Shown here piece after piece: positions 59,005-59,250 of a stretch of 64,000 nt of DNA. The notes under the pieces are model-generated. The model made no database searches. It was not told where the DNA came from and worked only from the letters and a program-made list of their open reading frames with translations. The DNA comes from Candidatus Gastranaerophilales bacterium. Lineage in GTDB: Bacteria > Cyanobacteriota > Vampirovibrionia > Gastranaerophilales > CAJFVJ01. Numbering within the stretch: the stretch's first letter is position 1; each line of letters starts with the position of its first letter. Both the position numbers and the translations under genes were made by a program. The DNA lies in assembly GCA_944323485.1 (NCBI GenBank), contig CALUSR010000003.1, positions 201,466 to 265,465 of the forward strand, given 5' to 3'.

Positions 59005-59038
59005 AAAAAAAGTGACCTGCATAATAAATACAGGTCAC
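59005..59038 (-). terminator. intrinsic terminator (candidate attenuator) 30 nt upstream of the 57637..58974 gene
   Basis: On the minus strand: GTGACCTG-tatttattatg-CAGGTCAC followed by TTTTTTT. Confidence 0.6.
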
Positions 59039-59059
59039 TTTGATAACTTTAAAAAATAT

Positions 59060-59140
59060 TTAACGCCAACAAAACGTGCCTGTATCCTGATACAGCCACC
59101 ACCAGCTTAAGTTAATATAGTTTTGTTGTTGAATTTTCAT
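59060..59140 (-). CDS. candidate leader peptide MKIQQQNYINLSWWWLYQDTGTFCWR
   Basis: 26-codon ORF behind an AGGAAA RBS, with three consecutive TGG codons (59096..59104) immediately upstream of alternative hairpins. Confidence 0.4.
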   Translation of the reverse strand: MKIQQQNYINLSWWWLYQDTGTFCWR

Positions 59141-59250
59141 AGAATTTCCTGTTCACACTTGTTATAAAACAAAACAAAAAATTATTTGCTACCTGATTAG
59201 TATAATATTAAAAAAAATAAAATCAATACTTTTTCTGGTATTATACAACC

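Follow-up and report, generated by a model that had tools for sequence, protein, structure and literature searches.

We analyzed a 64,000-nucleotide (nt) stretch of DNA from a Candidatus Gastranaerophilales bacterium (contig CALUSR010000003.1, positions 201,466 to 265,465), referred to below as the window, in which a short open reading frame (ORF) with consecutive tryptophan (Trp) codons precedes the gene of a 445-amino-acid (aa) protein on the minus strand. This element is very probably a genuine trp-type attenuator placed before the monocistronic gene of an uncharacterized membrane protein. We regard it as highly likely that it works as a classical leader-peptide transcription attenuator, decided kinetically, which turns the gene on when charged transfer RNA for Trp (tRNA-Trp) is limiting. 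The homologue sample contained one genome per GTDB species and comprised 80 loci, or 81 with the window. The best argument that the element did not arise by chance is that 81/81 loci keep a WW or WWW mini-ORF at the same place, 100-270 nt 5′ of the gene. The features expected of such an attenuator were found together: a start signal and short ORF, tandem regulatory codons, mutually exclusive structures, an intrinsic terminator, and masking of the first RNA segment by a ribosome on the regulatory codons.

Leader ORF, RNA segments, and terminator in the window

All features in this section lie on the minus strand, and the elements listed in an earlier note on this DNA were all found at the positions it gave. 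The leader ORF (MKIQQQNYINLSWWWLYQDTGTFCWR, 26 codons plus stop) runs from the ATG at 59140 to the TAA at 59060 and follows the Shine-Dalgarno (SD) sequence AGGAAA (59150..59145). The regulatory codons UGG UGG UGG (Trp13-15, 59104..59096) form the only TGGTGGTGG in the 64 kb, for which 0.17 occurrences were expected from composition on both strands; such a run had been called unlikely by chance, and the count agrees with this. A fourth Trp codon, TGG, is located two codons ahead of the leader stop (59068..59066).

Segment 1 (CTGTAT, or CUGUAU in RNA; 59095..59090) starts at the nucleotide right after the last Trp codon. Folding and covariation identified it as the 5′ arm of the anti-antiterminator hairpin 1:2, in which CUGUAU pairs with AUACAG (59085..59080) across the loop CAGG. 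Segment 2 (ATACAGGCAC, RNA AUACAGGCAC; 59085..59076) is the partner of either segment 1 or segment 3, as judged from duplex energy, covariation, and folding with a ribosome mask. Segment 3 (GTGACCTGTAT, RNA GUGACCUGUAU; 59038..59028), likewise defined by folding and covariation, is the 5′ arm of the terminator, and it is followed by segment 4 (ATGCAGGTCAC; 59022..59012) and a run of seven T (U7 in RNA; 59011..59005). The intrinsic terminator as a whole (59041..59005) consists of a 14-bp stem formed by 59041..59028 with 59022..59009, the loop UUAUU, and U7. A consensus terminator scan did not flag this hairpin, and thermodynamic folding was used in its place, which gave -19.6 kcal/mol for the stem, with U7 ending 30 nt ahead of the gene ATG.

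The 186-nt region had a minimum free energy (MFE) of -58.6 kcal/mol, compared with -31.9 ± 3.4 kcal/mol for shuffled sequences (z = -7.8; 0/200 shuffles as good). No Rfam family was matched in a cmscan of 57000..61000 at E <= 10 apart from chance microRNA and small-RNA matches (best mir-513, E = 0.35), and neither Trp_leader (RF00513) nor T-box was among the matches.

The regulated gene (58974..57637, ATG at 58974) encodes the 445-aa protein, a W-type paralogue with a single Trp, and its probable SD, recognized from the sequence only, is AGGGAAA (58990..58984). A consensus scan returned a candidate sigma-70-type promoter, TTGATT-16-TATACT (59226..59199), and an alternative, TCTACA-17-TATAAT (59240..59268), which overlaps the stop codon of the upstream TolC-like gene. 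A -10-like element, TGTATAAT, stands directly past that stop codon (~59248..59241).

Conservation of the leader and its two forms

The closest of the 80 loci to the window protein was that of Candidatus Adamsella avium (93% identity). At the 90%-identity cluster level the protein has more than 1,400 relatives, and the named ones belong to Candidatus Gastranaerophilales, which are non-photosynthetic Melainabacteria. TGGTGG was invariant in the leader alignments A2 and A3. The distance from the end of the W run to the start of the first hairpin is -3 to +3 nt in 81/81 loci, a second hairpin is present ahead of the gene in 81/81 loci, and a U-run follows it in about 74 of the 81. The mini-ORF is thus conserved in 80/80 homologous loci from different species, which upholds the trp-type design proposed earlier.

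Two forms of the leader were distinguished. The long form, with the pattern ...N.N..WW(W).L...G..(C/S)W(R/Q)-stop, was found in 55 loci including the window. The short form, ...LN.NWWRL-stop, was found in 26 loci, and its stop codon lies inside segment 1. An SD of the GGA or AAGG type precedes 48/81 leaders, and the remainder are mostly short-form and apparently leaderless. Alignment of the long-form loci on the leader ATG revealed TTGAC ~50 nt upstream, then a -10 box and the AAAGGAAA SD. The short-form loci showed TTGAC (~36 nt upstream) -17-TAnAnT, ending 6-7 nt before the leader ATG. The arrangement of these signals suggests that translation of the short-form peptides probably starts on leaderless transcripts. 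Short-form examples without an SD are L027 (605-620), L021, L036, and L073 (leader ATG -36..-1). Scored against a promoter consensus, the regions 5′ of all leaders were no better than shuffles (mean 8.4 vs 8.2 of 12) in this AT-rich DNA.

ORF clustering of the 81 loci revealed no conserved flanking gene, the biggest flanking cluster occurring in 17 loci, and gene-neighbourhood clustering found no trp genes among the neighbours. The nearest upstream ORF was on the opposite strand in 34/79 loci. Because the neighbours differ among genomes, the leader and gene appear to be an autonomous unit with its own promoter, whose parts move together. This refutes a possibility raised in the earlier note, namely that the hairpin serves solely as the terminator of the TolC-like gene: the flanks are not conserved, and the element always precedes this gene. 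A scan of metagenomes with the leader motif pointed in the same direction. Among the matches listed, 10/120 were genuine, and all 10 of these were ahead of this gene family; the other 110/120 stretches among those listed were random matches in higher-GC DNA. The scan leaves room for other Trp-regulated genes with different hairpin sequences.

Alternative pairings and additional helices

Covariation was evaluated in A2, which comprises 51 long-form leaders, against 500 shuffles. Hairpin 1:2 and terminator 3:4 had 87.2% of cells paired, and in 11 pairs both sides had changed; slid controls gave 37-47%. For the antiterminator 2:3, 87.3% of cells were paired, 6/9 pairs had changed on both sides, and slid controls gave 29-45%. 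Neither result was reached by any shuffle (0/500 each), so the alternative pairings 1:2, 2:3, and 3:4 read earlier from the window alone are real. Columns 74, 93, 175, and 200 change from G-C to A-U together, serving 1:2, 2:3, and 3:4 in turn, and this joint switching is therefore a signature of mutually exclusive helices. RNAalifold independently predicted both hairpins. Segments 2 and 3 formed more stable duplexes with their cognate than with non-cognate partners (-10.7 vs -9.2 kcal/mol; 0/5000 permutations), and shuffled sequences gave -3.5 kcal/mol; the 2:3 duplex of the window was -12.8 kcal/mol.

The earlier note missed two conserved helices, designated A and O, and the extra Trp codon by the stop, as well as the methionine (Met)- and isoleucine (Ile)-leader paralogues described below. 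The two helices were located in MFE structures and by a cognate-pair test. The 5′ strand of helix A (CAACAAAAC, 59128..59120) lies within leader codons 5-7 and its 3′ strand (GUUUUGUUG, 59075..59067) in codons 22-25, so that the helix encloses the Trp codons and hairpin 1:2 and joins the 5′ part of the leader coding region to its 3′ end. In long-form leaders its cognate pairing energy was -11.4 kcal/mol vs -8.1 for non-cognate pairs (0/5000 permutations); in short-form leaders cognate pairing was not significant (508/5000). The peptide termini look conserved ('QQQN...FCW', 'NLNLN...LLSW', 'NSKN...VLSW') because the RNA of helix A covaries.

Helix O surrounds the terminator and connects the leader stop with the sequence immediately 5′ of the gene's SD. 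Its 5′ strand (59062..59047) starts at the leader stop codon, and its 3′ strand (59008..58993) lies between the U-run and the SD of the regulated gene; the cognate energy was -9.5 kcal/mol vs -6.2 for non-cognate pairs (0/5000 permutations). Helix O is formable in read-through RNA only, which poses the question of a role in translation, stability, or processing.

The extra Trp codon by the stop, visible as U.GGC in the alignment, is invariant or nearly so in the 51 long-form leaders. In the long forms, this extra regulatory codon precedes the leader stop by one or two codons (W-R/Q-stop). It switches with the leader type, being part of W-R-stop in Trp leaders, R-M-stop in Met leaders, and E-I-stop in the Ile leader. 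Because it switches with leader specificity, it is a functional feature beyond its part in helix A.

Ribosome position and the proposed mechanism

Mask folding was performed on the nascent RNA to the end of segment 3 with an assumed ribosome footprint of -15 to +12 around the A-site codon, and a pairing was counted if it comprised at least 5 bp. When the ribosome was placed on the last Trp codon, 2:3 formed in 52/55 long and 24/26 short leaders, amounting to 76/81 loci with the window included, and 1:2 formed in none. In the absence of a ribosome, 1:2 formed in 40/55 long and 21/26 short leaders. With the mask at the stop codon, long leaders formed 1:2 in 35/55 and 2:3 in 20/55 cases, and short leaders formed 1:2 in 0/26 and 2:3 in 1/26. 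A ribosome at this position in short leaders prevents either pairing and so leaves the terminator free to form. For the window, folding predicted 8 bp of 1:2 without a ribosome, 10 bp of 2:3 with the ribosome stalled on the last Trp codon, and 7 bp of 1:2 with it at the stop codon.

In the mechanism that we propose, transcription would start from the element's own promoter, and a ribosome would translate the 26-codon leader. When Trp-tRNA is plentiful, the ribosome would pass the three UGG codons, and hairpin 1:2, stacked on helix A, would reform behind it. Segment 3 would then pair with segment 4, and RNA polymerase would terminate at U7, 30 nt before the gene. When Trp-tRNA is scarce, the ribosome would stall on UGG13-15 with its footprint covering segment 1. 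Segment 2 would pair with the emerging segment 3, blocking the terminator, and the 445-aa gene would be transcribed. We assign the sign of this response, on at low Trp, because a stalled ribosome would free segment 2 and because the product is purged of Trp.

The regulated protein

AlphaFold predicted an all-helical structure for the 445-aa protein, with a predicted local distance difference test (pLDDT) of 82 and a predicted template modelling (pTM) score of 0.75; as modelled, the product is an all-helical membrane protein. It had no Pfam or NCBIfam match, and a Pfam ATP-synt_G match (E = 0.047) was treated as noise. The best result of a sequence-profile search of PDB was MPC2 (E = 0.027 over 70 residues), which was also treated as noise, and Foldseek against PDB gave template modelling scores of <= 0.2. 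These searches agree with the earlier description of the regulated gene as unrecognizable. The protein showed no sequence or fold match to a known amino-acid transporter family, and it has ~3 strongly hydrophobic segments where ~10-12 transmembrane helices are expected of such proteins. A profile search of 1.84 billion representatives yielded only 224 relatives. Therefore, the family is small and lineage-restricted.

The Trp content of the family was 0.04%, vs 0.77% in flanking genes, and 69/80 members had no Trp at all. The phenylalanine (Phe) content of the W-type protein is 7%. That Trp is almost missing from the protein supports the earlier suggestion that its function may be tied to Trp availability.

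Paralogues with methionine and possible isoleucine leaders

Among more distant relatives, three have leaders of the Trp type: L203 (P0121; 45% identity to the window protein; leader MPNKNLNTQSWWSLSQRAGVLCWQ), L209 (P0134; 35%; MIKSMQNRNWWWQV), and L210 (P0195; ~27%; TTG start, ...QQWWWPQQPEVNWWRI), each leader ending at a stop codon. All three encode Trp-free proteins. The leader hairpins of L210 are quite unlike the others (CCUCAG/CUGAGG). Next to its gene (1001-2251), in divergent orientation, is one for a class Ib aminoacyl-tRNA synthetase (PF00579, TrpRS/TyrRS family; 1-638, minus strand), an arrangement that is possibly a coincidence.

Leaders of the Met type were found at L204 (P0122; 49% identity to the window protein; 821-907; MKNNQVITTAMMMCSMHNLCRLCFSSRM), L206 (P0125; 42%; 50-124; MIKNLMAMMMCMMCMSKFDRQVLL), and L207 (P0128; 41%; 242-334; MTNSKQNNTMMNMMMSMYMSMYRQVSAFRM), each again closed by a stop codon. 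Met leaders have runs of 3-5 AUG codons, often with cysteine (Cys) codons, and a Met codon in last position (e.g. MKKEFTTQMMMMMCMMM...RM-stop), followed by a hairpin and U-run. At L211 (P0130; GCA_017541465.1; 44% identity), the leader (824-916; MITSLNIAIISLIIISLLDSKRLLYCECEI and stop; gene 1001-2587) is Ile-rich. Its Ile codons lie within segment 1, and a perfect 10-bp 2:3 complement is present (AAGCGGCUUU / AAAGCCGCUU). The Ile enrichment is modest (p ~0.004) and confined to a single locus, and the protein is not Ile-depleted; the Ile-type paralogue, seen at one locus, is thus tentative. A hairpin and U-run follow the leader of every relative listed here except L209, which has no clear terminator in its 44-nt spacer. 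Upstream of two further relatives, L201 (2700-3010) and L202 (1960-2235), no recognizable leader ORF or attenuator was found, and their proteins have normal Trp (5 W each).

The P0122 cluster is annotated as Candidatus Adamsella, which we take to be the window's own genus. A search with P0122 returned 949 proteins, and the largest contigs with matches (1,872,718, 20,837, and 10,659 nt) were the same as for the W-type. The locus tags PHV37_02915 and PHV37_03405 represent both paralogue types in one metagenome-assembled genome (MAG). The 20.8-kb contig L213 holds an M-type gene (5489..6856; leader 5311..5400 with its ATG at 5311, region 5230-5490; leader MKKEFTTQMMMMMCMMMPSYGRQYTSFRM and stop) and a W-type gene (9945..11237; leader MEILKQNVNINLNWWSLHCAGMFCWR and stop). 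Because both types occur in the same genus, MAG, and contig, they are paralogues, not orthologues. The M-type gene of L213 is divergent from genes for cysteine/methionine metabolism, encoding PALP/CBS, two Cys_Met_Meta_PP, Hexapep, and ThiS proteins. A rough neighbour-joining tree placed the Trp leaders in one clade and the Met leaders, the Ile leader, and one leaderless member in a sister clade.

The amino-acid composition of the two types is reciprocal, the M-type being poor in Met and Cys and normal in Trp. W-type proteins (n = 120) contain 0.08% Trp, 1.52% Met, and 0.96% Cys, and M-type proteins (n = 119) contain 0.61% Trp, 0.71% Met, and 0.36% Cys; the values in neighbouring genes are 0.77%, 2.51%, and 1.36%, respectively. 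The M-type conserves Trp at positions 52, 297, and 396, where the W-type has L, L, and F; the window protein retains W52.

Evaluation of the attenuator and alternative explanations

Several points weigh against a kinetically decided transcription attenuator, or against parts of that explanation. The second hairpin lacks a U-run in 7 short-form relatives, and therefore intrinsic termination is not universal in the family. These 7 relatives may have a different read-out, translational or Rho-dependent. At the loci concerned (L021, L028, L056, L073, L074, L075, and L078), the hairpin CCUGU...CACAG abuts an AAGGA SD. The equilibrium MFE structure keeps the terminator even with the ribosome mask (51/55 long leaders); as the terminator is the MFE structure throughout, antitermination must be kinetic, as in the E. 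coli model. From footprint geometry, a stall at the fourth Trp codon would cover segment 2 and favour termination. Helix O is unable to affect termination, as its 3′ strand is encoded downstream of the U-run. The product is not recognizable as a trp gene or transporter in Pfam, NCBIfam, PDB, or Foldseek-PDB searches. Its ~3 strongly hydrophobic segments and 13% lysine (Lys) are atypical of a permease, and the W-type and M-type show just 7 fixed differences, which is few for a change of substrate. Finally, we infer from sequence that the ORF is translated, that expression responds to Trp, that stalling makes the choice kinetically, and that the gene is on at low Trp.

Some of these points could also be accommodated by a Trp-sensing leader whose main control is post-transcriptional, on translation initiation or messenger RNA (mRNA) stability via helix O and the hairpin beside the gene's SD, or Rho-dependent. 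Helix O is conserved and covarying, exists only in read-through transcripts, and ends just 5′ of the gene's SD; the second hairpin of the 7 relatives without a U-run abuts the SD; and a ribosome stalled at the extra codon by the stop would sit on the 5′ strand of helix O. However, the window and ~74/81 loci have a canonical hairpin with a U5-8 terminator, and the gene's SD is unpaired in the predicted folds. Such a layer could act alongside attenuation rather than replace it, and we consider it unlikely as the main control.

An arrest peptide like TnaC, in which the nascent leader senses free Trp in the ribosome and the gene is induced at high Trp, as in tnaCAB, would account for Trp being the only invariant peptide residues and for the conserved W-R/Q-stop end of the long forms. 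Arrest peptides need a fixed distance to the peptidyl-transferase centre, whereas anything from 2 to 16 codons separates WW from the stop here, and the other residues of the peptide vary freely, in step with helix A pairing. The regulatory residues are tandem, an intrinsic terminator and covarying antiterminator are present in place of a Rho-dependent spacer, and the paralogues have 3-5 consecutive Met codons within this architecture. A Trp-purged product makes sense only for expression in Trp shortage. We therefore find this explanation very unlikely.

The leader could instead sense general translation stress or a ribosome-targeting antibiotic, as leaders of the erm, cat, or bmrCD type do. 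A resistance-nodulation-division (RND)/TolC efflux system is next upstream in the window, and leader-peptide attenuators control drug transporters in Firmicutes (PMC4191407). Nevertheless, the efflux neighbours are not conserved, the tandem Trp codons are invariant and replaced by tandem Met codons in the paralogues, and an antibiotic sensor does not predict the matching amino-acid depletion in each paralogue; this explanation is highly improbable.

It is hardly conceivable that the mini-ORF is a chance occurrence and the hairpin merely terminates the upstream TolC-like/RND efflux operon, with the 445-aa gene served by an unrelated promoter: the element does lie 110-250 nt downstream of the TolC-like stop codon, and an upstream A-tract means that the terminator could serve the upstream gene too, but the ORF and two-hairpin unit recurs in 80/80 other species with differing upstream genes (divergent in 34/79), the 2:3 covariation is needless for a plain terminator, and only 0.17 TGGTGGTGG are expected per window.

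Possible function of the protein family

Because amino-acid control is paralogue-specific and the M-type is linked to Cys/Met genes in L213, we infer for the product a role in obtaining its cognate amino acid or in withstanding a shortage of it. One tentative proposal is an unrecognized, Melainabacteria-specific family of amino-acid-starvation membrane proteins, in which each paralogue has a leader rich in its cognate amino acid (Trp, Met/Cys, possibly Ile) and is purged of that amino acid. Two readings of such a family fit: an uptake class with a leader-coded substrate, or isoforms each of which can be built without its amino acid. Our leading guess for the product, and a guarded one, is a novel family of uptake proteins whose specificity can be read from the leader. 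The few hydrophobic helices, extreme Lys content, and 7 fixed differences suit 'starvation-proof isoforms' of one function equally well.

Neighbouring genes

Upstream of the element on the minus strand is an RND efflux pair, consisting of an AcrB-like ORF (61030-63957) toward the window edge and a TolC/OEP protein of 585 aa (59251-61008), whose N-terminal region ahead of the OEP domains is unusually long (~170 aa), of low complexity, and rich in lysine and glutamate (Lys/Glu). Downstream of the regulated gene are genes for a TypA/BipA GTPase (55681-57489, minus strand), a Bcp-type peroxiredoxin (55214-55678, minus strand), and a SpoIIE-like PP2C phosphatase (53991-55217, plus strand). These downstream genes (TypA/BipA, Bcp, SpoIIE-like) are unlinked to the element in other genomes.

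Comparison with known systems

The trp attenuator of E. coli and Salmonella (trpL, RF00513) is alike in having a short ORF with tandem Trp codons, mutually exclusive 1:2, 2:3, and 3:4 pairings, and a terminator just before the gene. The stop codon of E. coli trpL is inside segment 1, the same geometry as in the short-form leaders. There is no sequence or structure homology between trpL and the window element, in keeping with the lack of an Rfam match at E <= 10. The window element also differs in occurring in non-photosynthetic Cyanobacteriota (Gastranaerophilales) and in controlling a single membrane protein instead of Trp biosynthesis. Moreover, its long form has 10-11 more codons past segment 1, helix A, the extra stop-adjacent Trp codon, and helix O.

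Actinobacterial leader attenuators (Corynebacterium trp and ilvB, and those of mycobacteria) share runs of regulatory residues and, in some cases, leaderless translation. Leaderless attenuators with polycysteine small ORFs exist in mycobacteria. These systems belong to another phylum and have other targets, whereas here the paralogues of one family carry Trp, Met, and possibly Ile leaders. In Firmicutes, T-boxes control uptake genes and, like the element described here, sense the uncharged or limiting tRNA of one amino acid. The regulatory codon of a T-box can predict the specificity of uncharacterized transporters. The means of sensing differs: a T-box binds tRNA directly to the RNA, whereas here a ribosome would stall on a translated leader, and no T-box was matched. 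A precedent for the comparative-genomics approach exists for the actinobacterial leader attenuators (PMC1262725).

Cognate-amino-acid bias, whereby starvation-induced proteins are low in the missing amino acid, has been described before (PMC4209129), including the 'Down-Trp' proteins of Chlamydia (PMC3937554). The low Trp of the W-type (0.08%) and the low Met and Cys of the M-type (0.71% and 0.36%) resemble this bias; the difference is that here it is reciprocal between two paralogues in one genome and coupled to matching leader peptides. Gut Melainabacteria miss Phe, tyrosine, histidine, arginine, aspartate, and asparagine according to Di Rienzi 2013 (PMC3787301), and Trp is not listed there.

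Significance for the Gastranaerophilales

The mechanism itself is textbook. We found no report of its order-wide presence in Gastranaerophilales, of this target, of a leaderless short form, or of Met-codon leaders, and none of paralogues that couple leader specificity with depletion of the cognate amino acid. A literature search for a Met-codon leader attenuator found no report; if real, the Met-codon leader would be, to our knowledge, the first leader-peptide attenuator for methionine. The element would bring classical ribosome-mediated attenuation to the non-photosynthetic sister lineage of Cyanobacteria, for which we found no description of it.

These findings provide a handle on an unannotated, order-wide family, as this paralogue is predicted to be on under Trp shortage and its sister under Met shortage. 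They also present a clean natural case of coevolution between the amino acid of a leader and the composition of the protein under its control. These gut bacteria are uncultured, and knowledge of the amino acids that they monitor may aid their culturing.

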